Assembly (NCBI GenBank): GCA_963665295.1
Contig: OY762209.1
Location: 1,536,001 to 1,600,000, forward strand
Origin: Syntrophorhabdaceae bacterium
GTDB taxonomy: Bacteria > Desulfobacterota > Syntrophorhabdia > Syntrophorhabdales > Syntrophorhabdaceae
Direction: 5' to 3'
Length of the DNA: 64,000 nucleotides
Shown piece by piece: positions 4,078 through 20,064 of the stretch. Positions within the stretch are counted from its first letter, which is position 1, and each line of letters starts with the position of its first letter. The notes beneath the pieces were generated by a model that saw only the letters and a program-made list of their open reading frames with translations, was not told the DNA's origin and did no database searches. A program made the position numbers and the translations under genes.

Positions 4078-5529
4078 TCATTCCCCTTTGAGTCTCTTGA
4101 GCAGGAGGTCGTTGAGAAGTTTCGGATTCGCCTTCCCCCTCGTTTCTTTCATTGCCTGTCCCACGAAGAATCCGAGGAGTTTTTCCTTGCCTCCCCGGAA
4201 ATCGGCCAGCTCTTTGGGGAATTTCGCAATGATGGCGTCTATTGTTCCCACGAGGGAGGTTTCGTCCGATATCTGGACCATGCCCTTCTCTTCCACGAGT
4301 TTCTTCGGCGAGATGCCCCGCGCATAAAGCTCGGGGAATATTTCCTTGCCTATCTTTATGTTTATAGTCCCGTCCTTTATGAGGGAGAGCAGTTCCGCGA
4401 GGTGTCCGGGGGTGAGGGGCGCGTCTTTCGGCGACACGTTGCCCGTCTTCAACTCCCTCAAAAGCTCGGTCATGATCCAGTTGCTCACGGTCTTCGCTTC
4501 CTTGAAGAGCTTCAGGGTCTCTTCGAAATAGTCCCCCAGCGCCCTGTCCGAGACAAGTATCTCCGCGTCATACCGGGGTAGGCCGTATTCGCTCATGAAC
4601 CGCTCTATCTTCGCCATGGGCAGTTCGGGAAGGGCCTTTCCTATTTCCTCCACCCAGGCATCGTCGATGGTCAGGGGAAGAAGGTCGGGTTCGGGGAAGT
4701 ACCTGTAGTCGTGGGCTTCTTCTTTACCCCTCATGGAATAGGTTACGCCTTCGTCGGGGTTGAAAAGGCGCGTTTCCTGGACAACCGTGCCGCCCGACTC
4801 TATCAACTCGATCTGCCGCGTTATCTCGTAGGCAAGTGACCTTTCTATGAAACGGAAGGAATTGAGGTTTTTCATCTCCGCCCGGGTGCCGAGTTCCGGG
4901 TCGCCCTTCTTCCTCACCGACACGTTGGCGTCGCACCTGAAACTCCCTTCCTCCATGTTCCCGTCGCATACTTCAAGGTAAACCAGTATATCGCGCAGGG
5001 TCTTGAGATAGAGGACCGCCTCCTCGGGTGTTGCGATGTCCGGTTCGCTCACGATTTCGAGAAGGGGCACGCTCGACCTGTTGTAGTCGACGAGGCTGTA
5101 ACTGCTCGCCTCTATGGTGCTCTCGTGAACCAGCTTCCCTGCGTCTTCCTCCATGTGGACCCTTTTTACACGGATCCTCTTTTTCGTATCCCCGAGGAAG
5201 ATATCGAGGAACCCGTCTTCGCATATGGGCTCTTCGTACTGGGATATCTGATAACCCTTGGGCAGGTCCGGGTAATAGTAATTCTTCCGGGCGAAGATAC
5301 TCTTTTTGTTAATCCTGCAACCGAGGGCAAGACCGAGTTTTATGGCAAAATCCACCACCTTTTTATTGAGGACCGGCAGGGCGCCGGGAAGTCCCATGCA
5401 GGTAGGGCATGTGTGGCTGTTCGGTTCTCCCCCGAATGTGGTTGAGCATCCGCAGAATATCTTGCTGTTCGTGAGAAGATGGGCATGAACTTCAAGCCCC
5501 ATGACGCCTTCATAACCGTTATGATTCAC
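4078..5529 (-). CDS. gatB: Asp-tRNA(Asn)/Glu-tRNA(Gln) amidotransferase subunit B
   Basis: Motifs GLEVHAHL.T.SKIFC, RKNYYYPDLPKGYQISQ, HMEEDAGK, GSFRCDANVS, DYRYFPEPDL, and a C-terminal Yqey-like GFFVGQAMK.TRGKANP. Confidence 0.98.
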   Translation of the reverse strand: MNHNGYEGVMGLEVHAHLLTNSKIFCGCSTTFGGEPNSHTCPTCMGLPGALPVLNKKVVDFAIKLGLALGCRINKKSIFARKNYYYPDLPKGYQISQYEEPICEDGFLDIFLGDTKKRIRVKRVHMEEDAGKLVHESTIEASSYSLVDYNRSSVPLLEIVSEPDIATPEEAVLYLKTLRDILVYLEVCDGNMEEGSFRCDANVSVRKKGDPELGTRAEMKNLNSFRFIERSLAYEITRQIELIESGGTVVQETRLFNPDEGVTYSMRGKEEAHDYRYFPEPDLLPLTIDDAWVEEIGKALPELPMAKIERFMSEYGLPRYDAEILVSDRALGDYFEETLKLFKEAKTVSNWIMTELLRELKTGNVSPKDAPLTPGHLAELLSLIKDGTINIKIGKEIFPELYARGISPKKLVEEKGMVQISDETSLVGTIDAIIAKFPKELADFRGGKEKLLGFFVGQAMKETRGKANPKLLNDLLLKRLKGE

Positions 5530-5841
5530 TTTTCCACCTCTCCGGTAGTCGTAATGGTACTAATATACAACAGGTTCTCCCCTTTTTCCAAATATTCCGT
5601 AGGCGGAAACGGGGCGGTCGCGGACATGGTGCGGGAGGGGCGCTGCAGTCCGGGCAGGAGGGTCCATCACCGCAGGTGGGGAAAGACGGCCCCCTATCCC
5701 CCGGATGTCATTGAAAACATGGGGCATAACAGAACAAGGCTTGACCGTACAGGCATTTTCGGGTATGAAGATAAGATGTGGGTCGGTATACCGGGCCGAC
5801 TGACCAGATATTCAGCCCGGGCCCGCCCGGACTGCGATGAT

Positions 5842-8800
5842 ATGACCTTCAACTGCCATACGGGGCCCTCCACGCCGCAAAACGGCAGAAACAGGCGTCT
5901 TTGCGCCCGGTTCACGGCGTTGGCGGTCCTGTTCTGGTGCTGCGTCTTTCTTACCGGGGCTTTGGGGCAAACCATTTCAGACAATATTACCTCTGTCGGC
6001 CCCGGTATGGTGGGCGTCAGGATAGAGGAGAGGACAGTAAGCGAAACGCCGCCCGTGGATAGTATATCGGGCGGGCAGATAAAGCCGCCGGCTTTGCTGG
6101 ATTCGACGGCGAGCTACACGATTTCGTCCGATGACGACCCCAATTACGTTACGCCGCGTTGCCCGTCGGCCGTGTACAGGAAGACGAGACCCATTGATCT
6201 GGCCTATCCCCTGTTCGGATCGCGGGATCCCTCCGGGGCCGCCTCGGATGTGGCTTCACTGGAGCACAGCCTCTACCTCGCCCTCGATCCGCCCCTTGCG
6301 GCGGGTAAGACCTATACCGTCACTCCTGGTTTCAACTCCCTTGGGAGCAGGACTTTTGTCTTCGGTTGGGGGGTGATGAGGAGCGATGCGGTCCATGCGA
6401 ACCATGCCGGTTTCAGGCCCGACGAGCCTTCCAAAGTGGCCTTTCTCTCCCTCTGGACGGGAAGCGGCGGGGCCCGGAGTTTTGTGGAGGGCAGTGCTTT
6501 TTATGTGTGCCCGGGCGATAATTCAGTGGACTGCGGCAATGAGACGAACCGTGTTTTCGCGGGCCTTGTGGGGGCGCCTTTCACCAGGGAGACAGCGGAG
6601 AATTGGCCTTCCCCCGGTTACCCCGACCCGCCCAATTACAGTTTCACCGACGTTTACCCCCTTGACTTCAGCGCCTGGCAAGGCGCGTCGGAAGGGACCT
6701 ACCGGGTATGTGTCGAAGATGTGGGCTGTTCCTATCCTTTCGAGATCAGTGGGGCGGTATGGCAGAACCTCTTCCTGAAATCGGTGAGGGCCCTCTATTT
6801 CCAAAGGAGCGGAACAGCAGTGGGCACGGCGGGCGACATCTACCACCGACCCCTCGATTTCGGGGGCCTCACGGTGAGCGAGACGGATGTGACGCTCCTT
6901 GAACTGGCCGGTGTATGGCAGGAAGAGCCCCACGCATGGCTCGTCGAGAACAAGCGCGCGGGGACTGCGGTCGGCGGCGCGTGGGGTGGGTATCATGACG
7001 CGGGCGACTGGCAGAGAAGGGTAGAGCATCTCGATGTCCCGCGGCTGCTCTTCGATCTTTATGACGCATTTCCCGCCCGGTTCCAATCGCTCAGTCTCAA
7101 TCTGCCTCAGATGAGCACTGACCCGGCCATTACGCCGCCTGTCCCCGACCTTTTGAGGGAAGCGTTATGGAGCGTCGATTTTTTCAAGCGGCTCCAGATA
7201 TCGGAACCTGGTGATCTTTACGGGGCGGTGCGGGGCGGAATCAATTCCGGGGCATATCCCACCTATGGCGAGAGGAGTTTCGAGCCGGGCTCGTCCCTCG
7301 CCTTCGACCTTATGGCGTACTGCCCCGATGTGTGGTCCTCCTATCTATACGCCGCCGCCGCGGCCCAGACATACACCATGCTCAAGAAGCATGTGACCAA
7401 CGCGCCCTCCTCGCTTGTCGACGGATACCTTCAAAGCGCCCTCGACGCCATGAACTGGGCCGAGAAGAACTGGCCGTCAACCGAGGAGCACTGGGCGCGG
7501 GCAAACGGAAGCATTCCGTTCCCGAGTCAAACCGTGACCAACGCCCGGAACCTGGCCGCCGCCGAACTCTTCAGGGCAACGGGGGATTCCACCTGGCACG
7601 AGGTATTCGCGGCGACCACGTTCTTTACGAAAACCGTCAGCTACGGCGATGGCTATGACCAGATCGACGCCGCATGGACATACTATAATACCGACCGGCC
7701 CGGCATGAGCGAGGGGATCAGGGGATATTGCCGGGACACCCTGGTCGGAGCCGGGCACGCCCTCCTGTACGTGCAGCCCCTCACAGGCTTCCGACTGGGA
7801 AAGAACATCTCCATGCCCGCGGGGTTCGGAAACCTGACCGGCGCGGACCGGTTGCTGGCTCACGCAATTCGCGCCCATATGATCACCCGGGACGCGGAAC
7901 AGCTCAAAGCGCTCATCCTTGGGTCCCAGTCGGGCCTTGGGGCCAACCCGGTCAACATGAGCTTCACCACGGGGATAGGCCATAAATACCCGAAACACCT
8001 GTTCCACCACGACTCGCGAGGTCTTATGGACCCGCCCCCGGGGATCACGGTGGAGGGACCCCTCGACTCCCGCTACTCTGCGGCGGTGACCGATATTTAC
8101 AACTACTTTTTTGCCCCTTTTATCTATCCCGGCACGGATATCCTGCCTGCGTGGCCCCCCATGGAAGCCTATGCCGACGCCTTCTGGCCCCCTATAATGT
8201 GCGAGTTCCAGATCAATCAGACCGTGGCGCGCAACGCGTACGTGTGGGGGTACCTCGCAGCCCTCAGGGGTTTTCAGGCCGTGAAGACACGGTCCCTGGG
8301 AGTGAGCAAATCCGGCGCGGGGTCCGGCAAGGTGACGAGCAACCCCACCGGCCTCGATTGCGGCTCCACATGCGTTGCCGTTTTCTCCGACTGGGCGGAC
8401 GCGATCGTTACCGCTGTCCCTGATGCAGGATCGACCTTCGCGGGATGGGGCGGGGACGCAAGCGGGACGGCGGCGGCAAAGTTGGCCATGACAAAGGACA
8501 GGGCCGTTACGGCAACCTTCGATCTCATCCCCTACACCTTCAGCGTTGCCATTGAGGGTAACGGCGTCATTTCCGCAACCGGCCTTACCTGCAACGGTTC
8601 ATCCTGCCTTGGGACATATCCCTACGGCACGGTGGTGAACATATCGGCCACACCGGCCGTGGGTTCCGTCTTTTCCGGCTGGACCGGATGCGACGGAGCC
8701 TCCGCGGGTTCGGGGAAGAAAGGGGGGAAGAAGGGAAAGGCCCTCGGGACTTCCGGAAAGGCCGCCCGAAGCCGGGTCGCCGCTTCATCGGGCAATGTGT

Positions 8801-9654
8801 GCACCGTGACCGTGACAGGGGACAAATCCGTGTCGGCCCGGTTTGTCCCGGCAAAGACCCTCAAGACTGCGAGATCCGGTTCCGGCACCGTCATAAGCTC
8901 GCCTTCCGGCATCGATTGCGGGAGTTCGTGCTCGGCTTTTTTTGTGGAGGGCACCACGGTGAAGCTCAGCGCTTCACCTGCATCGGGGAACGCCTTTGCT
9001 TACTGGACCGGGGCGTGCACCGGGGCCTCCGGAACGTGCTCCGTTCTTATGAGCGGTGATTCGAGCGTGACCGCTGTCTTCAACCCGTCAGATACCAGGA
9101 AGCATCAACTCCTGGTATCGAAACGAAAGACGGCCGCCGGTGACGGCTCCATAACAAGCGACGACGGAATGATCCGCTGCGGAGAGACGTGCCGCAAGAC
9201 GTATTACCCCCAGACCCCTGTTACCCTTATCGCGGTCCCCAGCGGAAATTCGACCTTCACCGGTTGGGGCGGCGCCTGTTCGGGTACGGGCCCGTGCAGC
9301 GTTGCCATGGACAGGGCGAAACTGGTGACCGCCTCCTTTACGGGACCTCAAAGACTCGTGCTCGTGAAGCAGAAGGTGAAGAAAGGGGACGGCACGGTCA
9401 CAAGCTCGCCTTCCGGCATCTCCTGCGGCGCGGGCTGCACTTCCTTTGCTGCCCTCTATCCTCGGAACGGGAAGGTGACCCTCTCGGCGAACCCCGGTCA
9501 GGGTTCAACCTTTACGGGGTGGAAGACCGCTTCCCACGAATGCGAGGGCACGGGCGACTGCACCGTGACCATGGATAAAAGCCACCTGGTTGTTGCAATC
9601 TTTACAAAGACTTTCGCCTCCCGGGGCGCAAATGTTTCCCCCGAAGAGGAGTAG
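5842..9654 (+). CDS. Secreted glycoside hydrolase family 9 (Ig-like N-domain + GH9 catalytic domain + 5 C-terminal InlB-B/Flg_new-like repeats)
   Basis: Hydrophobic signal-like segment (FTALAVLFWCCVFLTGALG), CelD_N-like VHANHAGFRPD..KVAF, YFQRSG, GGYHDAGD, and C-terminal HLFHHDSR and CEFQINQTVA. The start is uncertain; ATG 5842 was chosen over the ORF-track start 5479, which overlaps gatB. Confidence 0.85.
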   Translation: MTFNCHTGPSTPQNGRNRRLCARFTALAVLFWCCVFLTGALGQTISDNITSVGPGMVGVRIEERTVSETPPVDSISGGQIKPPALLDSTASYTISSDDDPNYVTPRCPSAVYRKTRPIDLAYPLFGSRDPSGAASDVASLEHSLYLALDPPLAAGKTYTVTPGFNSLGSRTFVFGWGVMRSDAVHANHAGFRPDEPSKVAFLSLWTGSGGARSFVEGSAFYVCPGDNSVDCGNETNRVFAGLVGAPFTRETAENWPSPGYPDPPNYSFTDVYPLDFSAWQGASEGTYRVCVEDVGCSYPFEISGAVWQNLFLKSVRALYFQRSGTAVGTAGDIYHRPLDFGGLTVSETDVTLLELAGVWQEEPHAWLVENKRAGTAVGGAWGGYHDAGDWQRRVEHLDVPRLLFDLYDAFPARFQSLSLNLPQMSTDPAITPPVPDLLREALWSVDFFKRLQISEPGDLYGAVRGGINSGAYPTYGERSFEPGSSLAFDLMAYCPDVWSSYLYAAAAAQTYTMLKKHVTNAPSSLVDGYLQSALDAMNWAEKNWPSTEEHWARANGSIPFPSQTVTNARNLAAAELFRATGDSTWHEVFAATTFFTKTVSYGDGYDQIDAAWTYYNTDRPGMSEGIRGYCRDTLVGAGHALLYVQPLTGFRLGKNISMPAGFGNLTGADRLLAHAIRAHMITRDAEQLKALILGSQSGLGANPVNMSFTTGIGHKYPKHLFHHDSRGLMDPPPGITVEGPLDSRYSAAVTDIYNYFFAPFIYPGTDILPAWPPMEAYADAFWPPIMCEFQINQTVARNAYVWGYLAALRGFQAVKTRSLGVSKSGAGSGKVTSNPTGLDCGSTCVAVFSDWADAIVTAVPDAGSTFAGWGGDASGTAAAKLAMTKDRAVTATFDLIPYTFSVAIEGNGVISATGLTCNGSSCLGTYPYGTVVNISATPAVGSVFSGWTGCDGASAGSGKKGGKKGKALGTSGKAARSRVAASSGNVCTVTVTGDKSVSARFVPAKTLKTARSGSGTVISSPSGIDCGSSCSAFFVEGTTVKLSASPASGNAFAYWTGACTGASGTCSVLMSGDSSVTAVFNPSDTRKHQLLVSKRKTAAGDGSITSDDGMIRCGETCRKTYYPQTPVTLIAVPSGNSTFTGWGGACSGTGPCSVAMDRAKLVTASFTGPQRLVLVKQKVKKGDGTVTSSPSGISCGAGCTSFAALYPRNGKVTLSANPGQGSTFTGWKTASHECEGTGDCTVTMDKSHLVVAIFTKTFASRGANVSPEEE
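8287..9603 (+). repeat. Five divergent ~75-80 aa InlB B-repeat-like domains within the GH9 gene
   Basis: Recurring protein pattern G.G.V.S.P.GI.CG..C...F...T.V.L.A.P..GS.F.GW.G.C.G...C.V.M.....V.A.F. Confidence 0.85.
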
Positions 9655-10489: not shown

Positions 10490-10530
10490 AAAGGCGGCTG
10501 GGGGTTTCCTGGAGACCCTCAGCCGCCTTT
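10490..10530. terminator. Bidirectional intrinsic terminator between convergent trxA and bamD-lptA
   Basis: AAAGGCGGCTGGGGGTTTC...GAGACCCTCAGCCGCCTTT inverted repeat flanked by A- and T-runs. Confidence 0.8.
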
Positions 10531-10594: not shown

Positions 10595-12364
10595 TTATTT
10601 CGGGGTAAGAATGACCCGGGCCCTTTTGCCCTTCTCCGCCTTGTTTCCCTCCACAACGGCCTTGTCCTCGTTCACGTAATAGGTGACCACGTCACCGGTG
10701 AGCTTGTCCTGGCCCTGAAAAACGATCACATTCCCTTTGAGGGTTATCTCGCCCTTTCTGTTGTCGAAAATGGCCTCGTTCGCCGTGGCGGTGCGCTCTT
10801 TCTTGAGGATCTTCACGTGATCTTTGGCGTACGCCTTGTCGATCTCGTTTGATTCCTCATTGAGGTACGCCCGGATGGTGTCGGCGAATATGTAGAGGTC
10901 CTCCTGCTTTGCAATGACATTACCCTTGAACACCACGTATTTTTCTTTGTCGAAACCTTCCATGGTATCGGACACTATGTCAATCGGTTTGGTCTTGTCG
11001 AAGAAATCGAGGTCCTTCTTCTTATTCTTGTCCGCTTCTTTGGCCTTTGCAGGGGCTCCGGTCTTTTCAGGTTCCCCGGCTTTTCCCGGCGCGTCCCCCG
11101 GCTTGGGCGGCTCTGCCGCGGCCTGGCGGTCTTGGTACATCCTGGGGGTCAGTTCTATCTCCCCCGGCTTCTTCCCCTTGGTTTCCTGTACCGGGGGTTT
11201 GGCTGCCTTGGCCACCATGGAGGCGGCAGGCTTGGGGGGCGGGGTGTTAACGGCCACGGACGGCCCTGTGATAAGGTCTTCCTCCATGATAACGGGCTCC
11301 GGCTTCTGGAGCGCGGCAAGGTCCGCCGCCTCTTGCGCCTCCACGTCCTTTGCCGCATCGGACGCCGCATTTACCGCGGCGGCTGCAGGTTTAGCGGCTC
11401 CCCCGGCCCGAGGAGGAGCATCTTTGGACTTGGGGCCGGAAGTCTGTTCCGCGGCAGCTTGAAGTCCGGGCGCGGCCGGCGGGGAATCGGGCCCCGCAGC
11501 CGGCGAAGACTGCTGCGCCACAACGGCCCCGGTCTGAGCCCCGGCCCCGGCCGGGCTCGCCTGGGCCTCGATAGCCTCCGGGTTCAGCCGTTTACGTTTT
11601 TTGGCTATCGGCTGGGTAGCGGAGTCGGCGACCTTGAGGGTCTTTCTCTGCCTTATAGTGGAGGTTGCGTAGACGCTCTTTGGGTAATCGGCCTTCAGCT
11701 TGGCCGTGTAGTAATCGGCCTTTTCCGGATTGGCGAGGGCCTTGTACGACATGGCGATATAGAAGAGGGCCTTGTCGATCCCCTTGGCGTTCGGATATTT
11801 CTTGAGCATGTAGTCGAGGCGGACGATGGACGCGTTGTACTGGTTCGTCCTGTAGTAGAACTCGCCTACGTAAAGCTCCCTGTCGGCGAGCTTCTGTTCA
11901 AGGCCCTTGAGCCTGTCATCCACGACCTTGGTGTAACTGCTCCTGGGGTAGCGGTTCTTGAGGAGGGTATACTTTTCAATGGCCTTGAGGGTATTCGCCT
12001 GGTCCCTGTCGATAGACAGGGACATGTGTTCATAGCATTCGCCCAGCTTGAGAAGGACATAGGGGGCGTTGTCGTCCTCCGGGTGGGACGCGATGAAGGT
12101 CTCGTATACGCCCGCCGCCATGACGTAATCCTTCTTGTCGAAATGTGCGTCGCCGAGTTTCACCGCCGCCACGAGGGCGAGGGGATCAAAGGGGTACTCC
12201 TCCATGACCTGGTTGAATTTATGGATGGCATCATCCCATTTCTTGACCTTCAGGAGATTGACGCCTTCCACGTAGAGTTCGCCGGGGCCCTCTTTTTTGA
12301 CGGACTTGGAGGCGCACGAGGCGAGGAGGAGACATGCAATAAGAATGATTAGTACTCTTTTCAT
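10595..12364 (-). CDS. bamD: Outer membrane assembly lipoprotein BamD fused to a C-terminal LptA/OstA-like beta-jellyroll domain
   Basis: Lipobox LLASC; BamD TPR motifs (YPFDPLA, HPEDDNAPY, SIDRDQANT, LADRELYVGEFY); ~210-aa Ala/Pro/Lys-rich linker; LptA-like PIDIVSD.ME...VVFKGNVIAKQ...L.GNVIVFQGQDKLTGDVVTYYV...RARVILTP. Confidence 0.88.
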   Translation of the reverse strand: MKRVLIILIACLLLASCASKSVKKEGPGELYVEGVNLLKVKKWDDAIHKFNQVMEEYPFDPLALVAAVKLGDAHFDKKDYVMAAGVYETFIASHPEDDNAPYVLLKLGECYEHMSLSIDRDQANTLKAIEKYTLLKNRYPRSSYTKVVDDRLKGLEQKLADRELYVGEFYYRTNQYNASIVRLDYMLKKYPNAKGIDKALFYIAMSYKALANPEKADYYTAKLKADYPKSVYATSTIRQRKTLKVADSATQPIAKKRKRLNPEAIEAQASPAGAGAQTGAVVAQQSSPAAGPDSPPAAPGLQAAAEQTSGPKSKDAPPRAGGAAKPAAAAVNAASDAAKDVEAQEAADLAALQKPEPVIMEEDLITGPSVAVNTPPPKPAASMVAKAAKPPVQETKGKKPGEIELTPRMYQDRQAAAEPPKPGDAPGKAGEPEKTGAPAKAKEADKNKKKDLDFFDKTKPIDIVSDTMEGFDKEKYVVFKGNVIAKQEDLYIFADTIRAYLNEESNEIDKAYAKDHVKILKKERTATANEAIFDNRKGEITLKGNVIVFQGQDKLTGDVVTYYVNEDKAVVEGNKAEKGKRARVILTPK

Positions 12365-12409: not shown

Positions 12410-13054
12410 GTGAGAGCGGAAGAAATGATAGTGAAAGGCATGGCCTTCTTCGATATCCCCTGCGAGGCAGGGGCCGTCGAAAAGCTCTCCTTTTATATCA
12501 CGGAACTGGCGAGGTGGAATGAGCGGGTGAACCTGGTGGGCTTCAAGGACATGCGTTCCATAGTCGAGGTCCTCCTGTACGACACGTTCTTCCTGCACGG
12601 CTTCGCGGGCGGAAGCCCGAAGACCCTTGACCTCGGCTCGGGGTCCGGCATTATCGCGATCCCCCTCAAGATACTGAACCCGGACATGGAGATGCACGCG
12701 GTGGACAAGAGCCTGAGGAAGATTCAGTTTCAGCGGCACATAAAGAGAAACCTTTCCCTCGAAGGGTTCATCCCCGTCCACGGAAGGGCGGAGACCGTTT
12801 CTCCCGTCGGCGCCGAAAGCCTCGTGGTAAAGGCTTTCGGGACCATTCAGAAGATACTCGAACTGGGAAAGGCCCATCTTGTCGAAGGGGGACGCGCCTT
12901 TATCCTGAAGGGGACAAAAGAGGAGGCGGGCGAGGCGCCCGGTTTCCGCCTGGAGGATATCATCCCCTACCGCCTTCCCCGGAGCGAGCGGAGGTACAGG
13001 CTCTTTGTGTACAGAAAGAGCGAAACCGGGGAGACGGGGACCGGCACTTTTTAA
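12410..13054 (+). CDS. rsmG: 16S rRNA (guanine527-N7)-methyltransferase
   Basis: WNERVNLVG, SAM motif LDLGSGSG..AIPL, GRAE and ILKG; lies immediately upstream of parAB. Confidence 0.88.
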   Translation: MRAEEMIVKGMAFFDIPCEAGAVEKLSFYITELARWNERVNLVGFKDMRSIVEVLLYDTFFLHGFAGGSPKTLDLGSGSGIIAIPLKILNPDMEMHAVDKSLRKIQFQRHIKRNLSLEGFIPVHGRAETVSPVGAESLVVKAFGTIQKILELGKAHLVEGGRAFILKGTKEEAGEAPGFRLEDIIPYRLPRSERRYRLFVYRKSETGETGTGTF

Positions 13055-13090
13055 TAGTGTTCACAACTTAACCGTTTTTATGGTAAGGTA

Positions 13091-13855
13091 ATGCAGGTCA
13101 TGATCATATCTTTGGCAAACCAAAAAGGCGGGGTCGGAAAGACAACCACGGCGGTGAACCTCGCCGCATCCATCGCGGTGGCGGAAAAACGGACGCTTAT
13201 CATCGATCTCGATCCCCAGTGCAATACCACGTCGGGCTTCGGCATCAACTACAGCGGACTCTACGCCCATATCTACAACGTGCTGATCGGCTCCAAGCAG
13301 ATGAAGGAGATCATCCGGAAGACCCAGGTCCCTTTCCTCGACATTGCCCCCGCCCATCCCGACCTGATCGGGGCGGAGGTGGAGATGCTCGACATGGAAG
13401 ACAGGGAATTTGTGCTCAGGAAAGCCCTGGACGAGGTGAAGGACGAGTATGCGTACATATTCATTGATTGCCCTCCTTCCCTGGGACTTCTTACCATAAA
13501 CGCCCTCGCCGCTTCCGATTCCGTGATCATTCCCCTCCAGTGCGAGTATTTTGCCCTTGAGGGCCTTGCGGGACTCCAGCGGACGATCACGATAATCAAG
13601 AAAAGGCTGAACCCGAACCTCAGTATCAAGGGCATCCTTCTGACCATGTTCGACAAGAGGAACAACCTCTCCTTCCGGGTCTGGGAAGAGGTGAACAAGT
13701 GCTTCAACGAGGGTGTGTTCAAGACCGTGATACCGAGAAACGTGAAACTCAGCGAATGTCCGAGTTACGGTAAGCCCGTGCTTCTTTATGATATCACGTC
13801 GAAGGGAGCGGAAAGCTACCTCGACCTCGCATACGAGATACTGGGAGGGGGCTAG
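13091..13855 (+). CDS. parA: Chromosome partitioning ATPase ParA/Soj
   Basis: Motifs NQKGGVGKTTT, DLDPQCN, IDCPPSLG, PLQCEYFALEG and IPRNVKLSE.PS. Confidence 0.96.
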   Translation: MQVMIISLANQKGGVGKTTTAVNLAASIAVAEKRTLIIDLDPQCNTTSGFGINYSGLYAHIYNVLIGSKQMKEIIRKTQVPFLDIAPAHPDLIGAEVEMLDMEDREFVLRKALDEVKDEYAYIFIDCPPSLGLLTINALAASDSVIIPLQCEYFALEGLAGLQRTITIIKKRLNPNLSIKGILLTMFDKRNNLSFRVWEEVNKCFNEGVFKTVIPRNVKLSECPSYGKPVLLYDITSKGAESYLDLAYEILGGG

Positions 13856-14674
13856 ATGGCGAAAAAGGACCCGCTGGGGCGGGGTTTATCTGCACTGCTG
13901 AAGGATGTGGAGGAACGGGGCGGGAGCAAACTCATCGCCATCGACCAGATTACGCCGGGTTCGACCCAGCCGAGACTGTCGGTAAACGAGGAGACCCTTC
14001 TCGAACTTGCCGCGTCGATCCGGGAAAAAGGCCTTTTGCAGCCCCTCATAGTGAAGAAGAAGGACAGGGGCTACAGCATCATTGCCGGGGAGAGAAGGTT
14101 CCGCGCCGCGGTCATGGCGGGACTTACCGAGGTGGCAGCCATAATCAAGGATGTGGACGACAGGGAAGCCCTTGAGATCGCCCTCATCGAAAACCTTCAA
14201 AGGGAAGACTTGAATGCTGTCGAGGTGGCCGCCACGTACCAGAAGTTTATCGACGAATTCGGATACACCCACCAGGACCTCGCAAAGAAGATCGGCGTGG
14301 ACAGGAGTTCCGTCACCAATTACCTGAGGCTTCTCAAGCTCCCCGACTGGATCGTGAAGCTCATGACCGAAGGGAAACTTACCCAGGGGCACGGCAGGGC
14401 CCTCCTTTCCCTGAAGAACGAGAGGGAACAGAAGGCCTATGTGGGGAAGGTACTGAACGAGGGAGCCACGGTGCGGGATATCGAGCGGGCCGCGAAAAAG
14501 AAGGATAGCCGGGAAATCGCCCGGTTCGCCGACGCGGAAGAGACCCTGACCGAGTTGCTCGGCACGAGGGTCGCCATTACCTGCAAGGGACAAAAAGGCA
14601 AAATAATCATCGAATTCTTTTCAGAACAAGACCTTGTGAGAGTAGTGGAAACCATAACAAATATTAAACAATAA
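13856..14674 (+). CDS. parB: Chromosome partitioning protein ParB/Spo0J
   Basis: Motifs LGRGLSAL, QPR, IIAGERRFRA, ENLQREDL and HTH region RSSVTNYLRLL. Confidence 0.96.
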   Translation: MAKKDPLGRGLSALLKDVEERGGSKLIAIDQITPGSTQPRLSVNEETLLELAASIREKGLLQPLIVKKKDRGYSIIAGERRFRAAVMAGLTEVAAIIKDVDDREALEIALIENLQREDLNAVEVAATYQKFIDEFGYTHQDLAKKIGVDRSSVTNYLRLLKLPDWIVKLMTEGKLTQGHGRALLSLKNEREQKAYVGKVLNEGATVRDIERAAKKKDSREIARFADAEETLTELLGTRVAITCKGQKGKIIIEFFSEQDLVRVVETITNIKQ

Positions 14675-14680
14675 AAATCG

Positions 14681-14709
14681 TTGCAAAAGTCTAATATTTG
14701 TGATAATAG
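14681..14709 (+). promoter_or_regulatory. Candidate sigma70 promoter of the atp operon
   Basis: TTGCAA-N17-TAATAG with an extended -10 TG, in an AT-rich intergenic region. Confidence 0.4.
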
Positions 14710-14760
14710 TTAACCGTACTTGTGAAAATATTCTTTTTGAAATAGGAAGGAGTAGGAACT

Positions 14761-15186
14761 ATGATGCAATTTGACACAACTCTACTCTATCAGTTCGCGA
14801 ACTTCCTTATTCTATTGGTTCTTCTGAATTTCTTACTTTTCAAACCTGTTCTCCGTGTGCTGGAGAAAAGAGAAAAGACCATTGGTTCTCTTTTCGAGAA
14901 AGTACAGGACGTAAAGCAAGAAACGGTGGGGCTTGAGAAATCGTACGAGGAGCAGACCAAGGAGAGAAGAAAACCCATCCTTGAATTCCGGGCCTCGTCG
15001 ATAGCCGACGTCCACACCGTCTCCACAGGAATTATGGAAAAAGCGAGGAAGGACCTTTCGGAGGAACTCGCAAAGCTGAAGGCAGAGATAGAGAGCGAGA
15101 GCAAGAAGGTCCGCGACGCACTCATGGCGGACGTGGAGAAACTCGGGTCTGAGGCTGCGGAAAAGATACTGAAAAGGAGCGTATAA
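14761..15186 (+). CDS. atpF: ATP synthase F0 subunit b'
   Basis: N-terminal TM (QFANFLILLVLLNFLLFKPV) followed by a coiled coil; first gene of the atp cluster. Confidence 0.9.
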   Translation: MMQFDTTLLYQFANFLILLVLLNFLLFKPVLRVLEKREKTIGSLFEKVQDVKQETVGLEKSYEEQTKERRKPILEFRASSIADVHTVSTGIMEKARKDLSEELAKLKAEIESESKKVRDALMADVEKLGSEAAEKILKRSV

Positions 15187-15190
15187 GCAT

Positions 15191-15685
15191 ATGATGGGGG
15201 ATCTGCCGGAAGTCTGGAAATGGACCTTAAAGATTTTTAATTTTGCCGTACTGGTGGGAATCCTTGTAAAATTCGGCACAAAGCCTCTCAAGGGTTTTTT
15301 ACTGGGTCGCCATGATAAGGTGAAAGAGAAGATCGACGAGGCCGGCAAGCTCATGAGCGAAGCCGAGGATCTGAAAAAGGAATACGAAGGAAGACTCGCG
15401 CGTCTTGATCAGGAAATCGAAGAATTCAAGGCAAAAGTGACGGAAGAAACGAAGATTGAAAGCGAGAAAATACTCGCTGAAGCCAAGGCGTTCGCCGACA
15501 GGATACAGGAACAGGCGAAACTGACTTACGAACAGGAAATGAGAGAAATATCAGGCAGGATCAAAGAGGAAATCGCGAAACTCGCCCTTGATAAAGCCGA
15601 GAAGCTTGTCATGGAACGTTTCAACAAGGGTGATAACGACAAGTTGGTGGAAGAGTTCATAGAAAAGCTAAGGAGCTTAAATTGA
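15191..15685 (+). CDS. atpF: ATP synthase F0 subunit b
   Basis: KIFNFAVLVGILVKFG.KPL TM segment followed by a coiled coil. Confidence 0.9.
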   Translation: MMGDLPEVWKWTLKIFNFAVLVGILVKFGTKPLKGFLLGRHDKVKEKIDEAGKLMSEAEDLKKEYEGRLARLDQEIEEFKAKVTEETKIESEKILAEAKAFADRIQEQAKLTYEQEMREISGRIKEEIAKLALDKAEKLVMERFNKGDNDKLVEEFIEKLRSLN

Positions 15686-16224
15686 TACATCAGTCCATAG
15701 CCAAGAAATATGCAAAAGGTCTTTTCAACGTAGGAGAAAAAGACGGGAAATACAAGGAGTACCTGGGTGAACTCGCTTCGCTGGTAGAGCTCTTCGAGAA
15801 GGAGGAGCGACTCGGCAAGGCGCTCATGCTGCCCATCCTTGAAATGTCGAAGAGGAAAGAACTCCTCGGGGATGTCGTAAGGGCCGCAGGCCTGTCTCTG
15901 TCTGTCACGAATATGCTCACCATGCTTATGGAAAGAAACAGAATGGGGTATCTGCCCCTCGTGAAAGACGCGTTCAGCGACCTCGTGGACGAGAAGGAAG
16001 GCCGCGTAAGAGGAGTCCTTTGGTCCGCGTTTCCCGTGGATGAAGGTTTGAAGAGCCGGATCCAGGACGTCCTCGGGGCGAAAATGGAGAAGACGGTGGT
16101 CCTCAACGTAGTCGAAGACAGAAGCCTTGTCGGAGGCGTGAAGCTCAACGTAAACGGCACTATTATAGATGGCAGCGTGAAAAGGCAGCTTGAGACTTTG
16201 AAGGAAAATATTTTGAAGGAGTAA
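15682..16224 (+). CDS. atpH: ATP synthase F1 delta subunit
   Basis: IAKKYAKGL and D.SLVGGV...IIDGSVK.QL; TTG start overlaps the previous stop. Confidence 0.94.
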
Positions 16225-16229
16225 AGTTC

Positions 16230-17738
16230 ATGGAGATTAAAGCAGACGAGATAAGCAGGATAATAGAACAGAAGATATCGGGGTTCGAGAGAGAAGTAGA
16301 TCTTCAGGAAACGGGTGTAATAATCTCTATAGGCGACGGTATTGCAAGAATATACGGTCTCGAGAACGCCATGGCGGGCGAGTTGCTTGAGTTCCCTCAC
16401 GGAATTGCCGGGATGGTGCTGAACCTTGAAGAGGATAACATCGGGGCCGTCGTTTTTGGAGAGGATTACAAGATAAAGGAAGGCGATCTGGCCAAGAGGA
16501 CCGGAAGGATTGCCCAGGTGCCCGTGGGTGAGGCGTTGATCGGCAGGGTCGTGGACGGCCTTGGCATACCCATCGACGGAAAGGGACCCATTGACGCGAA
16601 GGAGTACAGGAACGTCGAGCAGACCGCACCGGGCGTCGTTGTCCGGCAGCCCGTTAAAGAGCCGATCCAGACAGGTATCAAGGCAATCGATGCCATGATC
16701 CCCATCGGTAGAGGGCAGAGGGAGCTCATCATCGGCGACCGTGGAACGGGTAAAACCGTCGTCGCTATCGATACGATCATCAACCAGAAAGGGAACGACG
16801 TATTCTGTATCTACGTTGCCATCGGACAGAAGCGGTCTTCAGTGGCAAGGACAGTCGATTTGCTGGCCAAGTACGGGGCCATGGAATATACAACGGTCGT
16901 GGCGGCAACCGCAAGTGACGCCGCTCCGCTCCAGTATCTCGCGCCTTTCTCAGGCACGTCCATGGGTGAGTACTTCAGGGATACGGGAAGGCACGCACTC
17001 ATCGTGTACGATGATCTGTCAAAACACGCGGTGGCGTACAGACAGTTATCTCTGTTGCTGAGGCGTCCGCCCGCACGTGAGGCGTACCCGGGCGACATTT
17101 TCTTCCTTCACTCAAGGTTGCTTGAAAGGTCCGCGAAGTGGGACGATGCCCATGGCGGCGGTTCACTTACAGCCCTTCCCATCATTGAGACTCAGGCCGG
17201 TGACGTGTCGGCATACATTCCTACAAACGTAATTTCCATCACGGATGGTCAGATATACCTTGAGCCTGAACTCTTCTATGCAGGTGTGAGACCGGCTATC
17301 AACGTGGGTATTTCCGTATCGAGGGTTGGTGGTAACGCTCAGATCAAGGCCATGAAGCAGGTGGCAGGAAGGCTTCGTCTGGACCTGGCCCAGTACAGGG
17401 AAATGGCGGCTTTCGCCAAGTTCGGGAGCGACCTCGACAAATCGACACTGGCACTGCTCGCGAGAGGTTCGCGCCTCACGGAGCTGCTGAAACAGGGTCA
17501 GTATGTTCCCATCCCCGTCGAGAAGCAGGTAGTGCTCCTCTTCGCCGCGGCGAACGGATTTATCGATGGGTATCCGGAGTCGGCTCTCAAGAAGTATGAG
17601 GTGGAGCTTATGACGTTCGTGGAGAAGGAACACCAGGATGTCCTGAAAGACATAAGAGAGAAGAAGGAAATAACATCCGCCATACAGGATAAACTGGAGA
17701 AGATGCTCAATACTTTTAAAGAAAAGTTCACATACTAG
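16230..17738 (+). CDS. atpA: ATP synthase F1 alpha subunit
   Basis: Motifs [30 protein letters not shown] and [13 protein letters not shown]. Confidence 0.99.
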
Positions 17739-17755
17739 ACCGGTAGGGACGCGAG

Positions 17756-20064
<2,309 letters not shown>

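Follow-up and report, generated by a model that had tools for sequence, protein, structure and literature searches.

A single gene in the 64,000-nucleotide stretch of Syntrophorhabdaceae DNA analysed here (the window) encodes a lipoprotein in which a BamD domain and an LptA-family domain are joined by a long linker, an arrangement which suggests that two machines that build the outer membrane are physically linked. The fusion is real, inherited and widespread, and not an assembly error. The original prediction of one uninterrupted 589-residue frame was borne out by the open reading frame itself, and both domains lie in a single intact frame at 65 of the 72 named loci of the order, including that of Syntrophorhabdus aromaticivorans UI (L083). 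We favour, at a probability of about 0.4, a reading in which the BAM-anchored LptA would dock on LptD as the outer-membrane-proximal unit of the LPS bridge. The full-length protein would have a mass of about 63 kDa by estimate; its parts are listed in Table 1.

Table 1. Parts of the BamD-LptA fusion, and the LptC-LptA tandem of the same genome. Positions are those of the window unless a genome contig is named.
Feature	Position	Strand	Detail	Basis
bamD-lptA fusion gene	10595..12364	(-)	589 aa (P0001)	single uninterrupted ORF
Lipoprotein signal peptide and lipidated Cys17	12314..12364	(-)	signal peptide aa 1-16; +2 residue Ala	sequence
BamD (YfiO) TPR domain	11645..12313	(-)	aa 18-240	TIGR03302, PF13525, model match to 3qky and 5ayw_D
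Ala/Pro/Lys-rich linker, probably disordered	11009..11644	(-)	aa 241-452	composition, low pLDDT
Short linker motif, variant form	11144..11167	(-)	aa 400-407	pattern count against shuffles
LptA-family beta-jellyroll	10598..11008	(-)	aa 453-589	PF03968, TIGR03002, TM-score, E. coli LptA alignment, column profile
Jellyroll edge strands	N-terminal aa 460-466; C-terminal aa 581-588	(-)		column profile, alignment
LptC-LptA tandem	G000:C1:4778198-4779115 (L006:8199-9116)		305 aa; between kdsD and lptB, far from the window	

The N-terminal part is a BamD family member by every test that was run, and is predicted from sequence and model to bind BamA and to take part in outer-membrane protein assembly. 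The complete BamD TPR domain claimed for it was recovered by TIGR03302 (residues 2-232, 193.7 bits against a cut-off of 81.4, covering model positions 2-238 of 239) and by Pfam YfiO (PF13525; residues 27-218, 113.5 bits, cut-off 25). The AlphaFold model has a BamD-like fold with pLDDT >85 over residues 21-230, and the top 27 rows of a Foldseek search are BamD structures, with a TM-score of 0.90 to 5ayw_D. The lipobox, which ends at Cys17, was likewise as claimed. This cysteine is nearly invariant (28 homologs), and the +2 position is occupied by Ala, Ser or Gly in 65 of the 70 homologs and never by Asp, including among the 69 homologs with the Cys; the +2 Asp rule for lipoproteins comes from E. 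coli. The genome (G000), a single contig rated 98% complete, holds one BamA and two YfiO matches, one strong (117 bits) and one weak and partial (27.6 bits), and P0001 is its sole convincing BamD. The lipobox, the full TPR domain and the predicted fold are common to P0001 and the BamD proteins of E. coli (5ayw_D) and Rhodothermus (3qky), but none of the solved BamD structures matched here has an LptA domain, whereas P0001 adds a 212-residue linker and a C-terminal LptA.

The long Ala/Pro/Lys-rich linker that had been foreseen consists of 24% Ala, 14% Pro and 12% Lys with one aromatic residue, and is modelled mostly at pLDDT <50 except for one helix at residues 337-352. No hydrophobic segment was found in it by an 11-residue hydropathy scan of P0001 (peak 0.98, against 3.73 in the signal peptide), in agreement with the claim that no second signal peptide precedes the jellyroll. 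Across 66 proteins of the order the linker measures 42-213 residues (median 110) and is unalignable except at a short motif with the consensus [KR]x[IV][DE]LxP, which is present in 55 of the 66, compared with a mean of 0.28 and a maximum of 3 in 200 linker shuffles. In the variant form carried by P0001, Leu405 is invariant and Pro407 nearly invariant among homologs; one homolog (L123:2551-3402) has the motif tandemly repeated. The motif was also considered as a first-strand mimic capping the jellyroll in cis, and this found no support: residues 224-272 of a short-linker homolog are modelled with pLDDT <50 and no strand (AlphaFold, 70-row alignment), and likewise in P0001. The computed contour length is about 150 Å for a 42-residue linker and about 760 Å for one of 212 residues. 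The linkers would be long enough for the tip of a neighbouring LptD, the short forms reaching only a close one.

The C-terminal part is an LptA-family domain that probably functions like LptA, and it is predicted to bind LPS, LptC and LptD. The LptA/OstA-like jellyroll of the original prediction is matched by PF03968 (residues 463-567, 70.6 bits, cut-off 20.4) and by the LptA model TIGR03002 (residues 455-589, 80.4 bits, cut-off 71.7). The latter cut-off is passed by 3 of 4 canonical LptA copies and by 2 of 9 other fusions, 5 of which score 55.7-70.8 while 2 (families f16 and f50) give no match at E 1e-6. In the AlphaFold model this domain, like the BamD part, is well folded. Foldseek TM-scores, normalised by target, are 0.83 to 2r1a and 0.81 to 4uu4, and the model of a short-linker homolog (L084) matches 2r19_A with Z 16.8 and rmsd 2.2 over 127 residues (second Z 16.7); the last jellyroll strand is of low confidence in both monomer models, that of P0001 and that of the short-linker homolog. 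The tethered domain aligns to E. coli LptA over the full length of the latter, and in a sequence profile both edge strands and the alternating inward hydrophobic pattern match the phylum's canonical LptA column by column. At the N-terminal edge, Pro460 and Asp466 are conserved in 93% and 97% of family-weighted rows, respectively. The E. coli residues I36 and Y114, LPS cross-link sites according to the available text of PMC5575297, correspond to Ile461 and Phe533 in the alignment. The counterpart of L116 is Asn535, a substitution common to many canonical copies in the phylum. No column sets the fused domain apart from canonical LptA in a manner that points to a new ligand.

The full-length jellyroll, both edge strands and the groove pattern are features shared with LptA (YhbN)/LptH (2r19, 2r1a, 4uu4). 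The tethered domain differs from these in being joined to BamD as the C-terminal part of a lipoprotein, with no signal peptide of its own such as soluble LptA has, and in being a second copy encoded outside the lptC-lptB operon, where the LptC-LptA tandem sits. Within the order, the tethered domain is 50-69% identical and the operon copy (the second domain of the tandem) 30-43%; the corresponding values are 80% against 50% in f27 and 66-81% against 44-68% in f13/f62, and the two are about equal in f14 and f18. By these sequence comparisons, the tethered domain is seen to be conserved at least as well as operon LptA in most lineages.

A Pfam search of this genome and a six-frame scan with a broader custom profile each gave three jellyroll proteins, namely BamD-LptA, LptC-LptA and LptD, and no free LptA. 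As to whether a canonical lptC-lptA-lptB locus accompanies the fusion, the outcome is divided. A kdsD-lptC/lptA-lptB-rpoN locus does exist, and outside the order separate lptC and lptA genes are kept in 19 of the 19 genomes whose operon was checked; the tethered domain is therefore an extra paralog there, 25-41% identical to the operon LptA copy. Inside the order, however, the locus holds a single LptC-LptA tandem, made up of an N-terminal membrane anchor, an LptC domain (positions based on TIGR04409) and a second LptA-like domain. We take its neighbours to be kdsD, lptB and rpoN from their sequences and known motifs. The tandem is present in all 26 order loci fetched, 23 of which had been preselected for a second-domain match and so do not form a blind sample; tandems of about 305 residues in the kdsD-lptB-rpoN operon recur across the order (L177-L181, L234-L253).

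The second domain of the tandem is homologous to the fused domain (hhalign 98.4%) and 20-23% identical to it within one genome. On TIGR03002 it scores 42.6-62.1 bits, below the cut-off in 6 of 6, and the match stops at model position 125-130 of 142 in all six tested. The canonical terminal loop-and-strand motif is replaced, and the domain may still end in an edge strand. By sequence identity between order genomes it evolves faster than the fused domain, and the BamD-tethered domain is the only canonical-scoring LptA of this genome. BamA, LptD, LptE, LptF/G and LpxC are all present, and LptD begins with an exposed LptA-type first strand. LolB gave no match here, with a profile that detects LolB in only 1 of 14 control genomes. 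An LptC-LptA fusion has been engineered in E. coli (PMC12065857, available text); the operon of the order encodes a natural tandem of this kind, but its second domain has diverged, has a different end and coexists with BamD-LptA. A separate LptC-LptA tandem with a canonical-type LptA was seen in f15 (L041, L048, L056), where the BamD frames are short (199-224 residues).

Within the order (named relatives being Syntrophorhabdus, Syntrophorhabdaceae and Syntrophorhabdales records), the C-terminal domain was matched in 94 of 96 genomes, one of which (G075) matches through the tandem only. The fusion gene has the same gene as its upstream neighbour in 71 of 71 loci, and the same thioredoxin-like gene downstream in 64 of 71. 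The idea that a missed stop or frameshift has joined two separate genes could draw on the 7 of 72 named loci that are broken into several frames, but we give it practically no weight. The broken loci all belong to a single title series of 18 records, and the remaining 54 include none; the break lies inside BamD in 5 of the 7 (L133 among them). In the three broken loci that were inspected, the frame downstream carries linker sequence and lacks a signal peptide. We infer that the breaks are assembly indels. Contigs of two runs (X2 and X3) each extend over the entire gene and show 0 differences from it and 0 gaps, and runs X4 and X5 yielded shorter pieces of it only. Because the X2 and X3 contigs may be the source of this DNA, conservation across the order loci, and across families, is the stronger check on the fusion.

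A survey of relatives confirmed the fusion well beyond the order, and the supposition that it is confined to one lineage did not hold: it extends through the order and turns up in 8 of the 108 other families sampled from the phylum (46 of the 386 genomes that lie outside the order). Two samples were used, one of 150 phylum genomes from which long BamD frames were excised and scanned, and one of 400 genomes searched with the fusion profile at E 1e-75, a threshold under which divergent fusions would be missed. Genomes with two-domain frames number 10 in f14, 8 in f62, 7 each in f18 and f16, 6 in f27, 4 in f13, 3 in f50 and 1 in f28; in addition, the frame is split at a masked stretch in one f27 genome and cut by a contig end in one from f18. 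Most sampled families are without the fusion, and no jellyroll was found in the long BamD frames of f23, f24, f58, f67, f40, f74, f20, f54, f46, f19, f112, f30 and f70. Among representatives at 50% identity, both domains are present in 29 of the best 150. P0086 and P0093, which have both, are only 36% identical to the nearest BamD in the set, and more fusion lineages therefore exist. The database labels on such proteins are BamD, LptA or TPR protein.

The C-terminal region has had different fates in these families. The f27 jellyroll is succeeded, after a second linker, by one or two Cds6-type NTF2 domains (L062:780-3434; P0067, P0076), and these Cds6_C NTF2-like domains presumably hint at a cell-wall link. 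In f16 and f50 the jellyroll is eroded (37-67 bits on the broad custom profile, on which the remaining outside families score 121-161) and its terminal motif is gone, and it has been lost altogether in 3 of 6 f50 genomes, which are nested within a well-supported fused clade. A first jellyroll tree, with LptC-linked rows included, placed the fused domains in 5 groups. With the 11 LptC-linked rows dropped (75 rows, 135 columns), a tree holding all 31 fused domains together beat the free search by 18.9 log units (p-AU 0.79), and in a BamD tree (56 rows) the one-clade tree was 21.7 lower (p-AU 0.17). A single origin would be compatible with these trees, being neither rejected nor demonstrated by them. 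Other BamD proteins (P0127, P0146, P0154, P0168; L068:1295-2512) have C-terminal tails of 150-400 residues with no jellyroll, some of which end in a conserved amphipathic motif.

In the mechanism we favour, one lipoprotein, shown by its sequence to bear both domains, would be kept beside BamA, the site of LptD folding, by its BamD part, as expected from established BAM biology. The C-terminal edge strand of the jellyroll would pair head-to-tail with the first strand of the LptD periplasmic jellyroll, the tethered domain loading LptD as or after the latter leaves BAM. The free N-terminal edge would accept the arriving bridge, made of free LptA in lineages outside the order and of the LptC-LptA tandem within it, and LPS would slide through the tethered domain, which would lie at the outer membrane with the variable linker as a spacer. 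LptD translocons within leash length of BAM would then be primed first, and LPS would be delivered beside sites of protein insertion. Such a role is consistent with the edge strands and inward hydrophobic pattern shared with canonical LptA, with the alignment of the two cross-link sites, with the conservation of the tethered domain relative to operon LptA, with the small set of jellyroll proteins in a genome whose tandem has a diverged second domain, and with the exposed first strand of LptD and the presence of its partners. In addition, LptD is a slow-folding BAM substrate which needs dedicated helpers, and in E. coli its stalled intermediates are in contact with BamD (PMC13067283, available text).

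Other observations weigh against the favoured mechanism. The edge strands belong to the fold too, and their conservation is no proof of use. With free lptA in all the outside genomes checked, a bridge could be built there without the tethered copy, and the domain is eroded or lost in f16 and f50 and absent from most sampled families. The engineered E. coli LptC-LptA fusion is reported to hand LPS over to LptD in vitro with no further LptA present (PMC12065857), and therefore the tandem of the order may be able to reach LptD unaided. Insertion of LPS in E. coli is described as dispersed and uncoupled from BamA activity (PMC11912417). A prediction of the three-chain complex (LptD N-terminal domain, LptC-LptA tandem and tethered domain) gave 0.58 against 0.53 for the control and was counted neither way. 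The coupling of BAM and Lpt first proposed for this protein fits the conserved docking strands and groove, but we arrive at it by inference, and sequence cannot separate a tether from a cap.

Such a cap would act as a transient chaperone, the domain binding the LptD N-terminal jellyroll only while LptD folds on BAM, shielding the groove and blocking an early bridge until displaced by the true one, with no passage of LPS. We hold this unlikely, while giving it real weight. It is in keeping with the 19 outside genomes, where the domain is additional to a full canonical bridge, and with the slow, helper-dependent folding of LptD and the stalling of its intermediates on BamD, and an assembly-only helper could erode and vanish as the jellyroll has in f16 and f50. 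One edge would suffice for a cap, yet conservation of the N-terminal edge equals that seen in canonical LptA, and inside the order it is the tethered domain alone that exceeds the LptA cut-off. The groove might instead take over acyl chains, those of LptE, Bam lipoproteins or surface lipoproteins, at the Lol pathway and bring them to BAM or LptD, and so partly replace LolB, a proposal we regard as distinctly improbable. The unmatched LolB is weak evidence for it given the sensitivity of the profile; from the available texts, LolCDE of E. coli passes the lipoprotein LptM on to LptA (PMC12065857), Bacteroidota export surface lipoproteins via an expanded Lpt translocon (10.64898/2026.10.03.756453, 10.64898/2026.10.02.756314), and LptD folds around LptE at BAM. 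No hint of a new ligand is seen in the columns of the domain, however, and an outer-membrane tether of about 40 residues could hardly reach inner-membrane LolCDE.

It is less probable still, and in our view very unlikely, that there is no coupling and that the fusion merely exports or doses a second LptA, periplasmic cleavage of the linker freeing an ordinary BamD and a soluble LptA. The linker is long, of low complexity and unconserved save for one short motif, a candidate protease site, and release would restore the normal arrangement in a genome where no free LptA gene was found. Outside the order, however, free LptA is already present; a split bamD and lptA with its own signal peptide is absent from 28 unfused bamD loci (short flanks) as well as from the three broken order loci, and the further domains that follow the f27 jellyroll on a second linker fit a multi-domain tether. 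A stricter form of the favoured mechanism may apply in Syntrophorhabdales, although we consider it doubtful: the LPS bridge would have no soluble part, the inner-membrane LptC-LptA tandem meeting BAM-anchored LptA as the obligatory last unit before LptD. This arrangement would go back to an ancient accessory BamD-LptA paralog turned essential after operon LptA fused to LptC. Were this true, LPS could enter the outer membrane only through translocons that the leash of a BAM complex can reach, and its delivery would be hard-wired to sites of outer-membrane protein insertion.

A fusion of these two essential outer-membrane machines is apparently undescribed. No description of BamD-LptA was found in a full-text literature search, although a mention in a comparative-genomics table is still possible; none is given in the available text of PMC13721041, a 2026 BAM review never mentions LptA, and BamD is mentioned 0 times in the available text of the two Bacteroidota preprints. 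LptM and LptE, which help LptD assembly at BAM, and Bacteroidota LptP, which packs on LptA, are likewise described as outer-membrane lipoproteins at the LptD/BAM or LptD/LptA junction, but none of them belongs to BAM as a subunit or is paralogous to LptA. The question touched is how cells coordinate protein insertion by BAM with LPS insertion by Lpt. In E. coli the two machines are reported to cluster yet obey distinct rules in space, and patches of LPS alone are proposed to arise where LptDE lies at a distance from BamA (PMC11912417). The fusion, in which an essential BAM subunit is covalently joined by nature to an Lpt bridge unit across an order and eight other families, would give the machines a concrete point of contact, and bears on the hand-over of LptD from BAM to the bridge and on the number of LptA units per bridge.

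Another attachment of LptA was noted in f57, f38 and f23, where the operon LptA has a large extra N-terminal region (416-595-residue frames; L038:2010-3272, L039:258-1505, L045:272-1540, L061:182-1510 and L172:2030-3814). Two of these have weak FlgT_M or LpoB matches, and the extended LptA is perhaps attached to a lipoprotein. P0197, of 350 residues, has two LptA domains in tandem. Directly upstream of the fusion gene and divergent from it, we take window positions 12410-20064 (+) to encode rsmG-parA-parB followed by an F-type ATP synthase operon. A G+C-rich inverted repeat flanked by A/T runs (10490-10530), which separates the fusion gene from the convergent thioredoxin-like gene, looks by eye like a two-way terminator. 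Further along, a 1391-residue frame (5479-9654, (+)), the start of which is probably over-called, encodes what we assume to be a glycoside hydrolase family 9-like domain followed by several paired-cysteine repeats.
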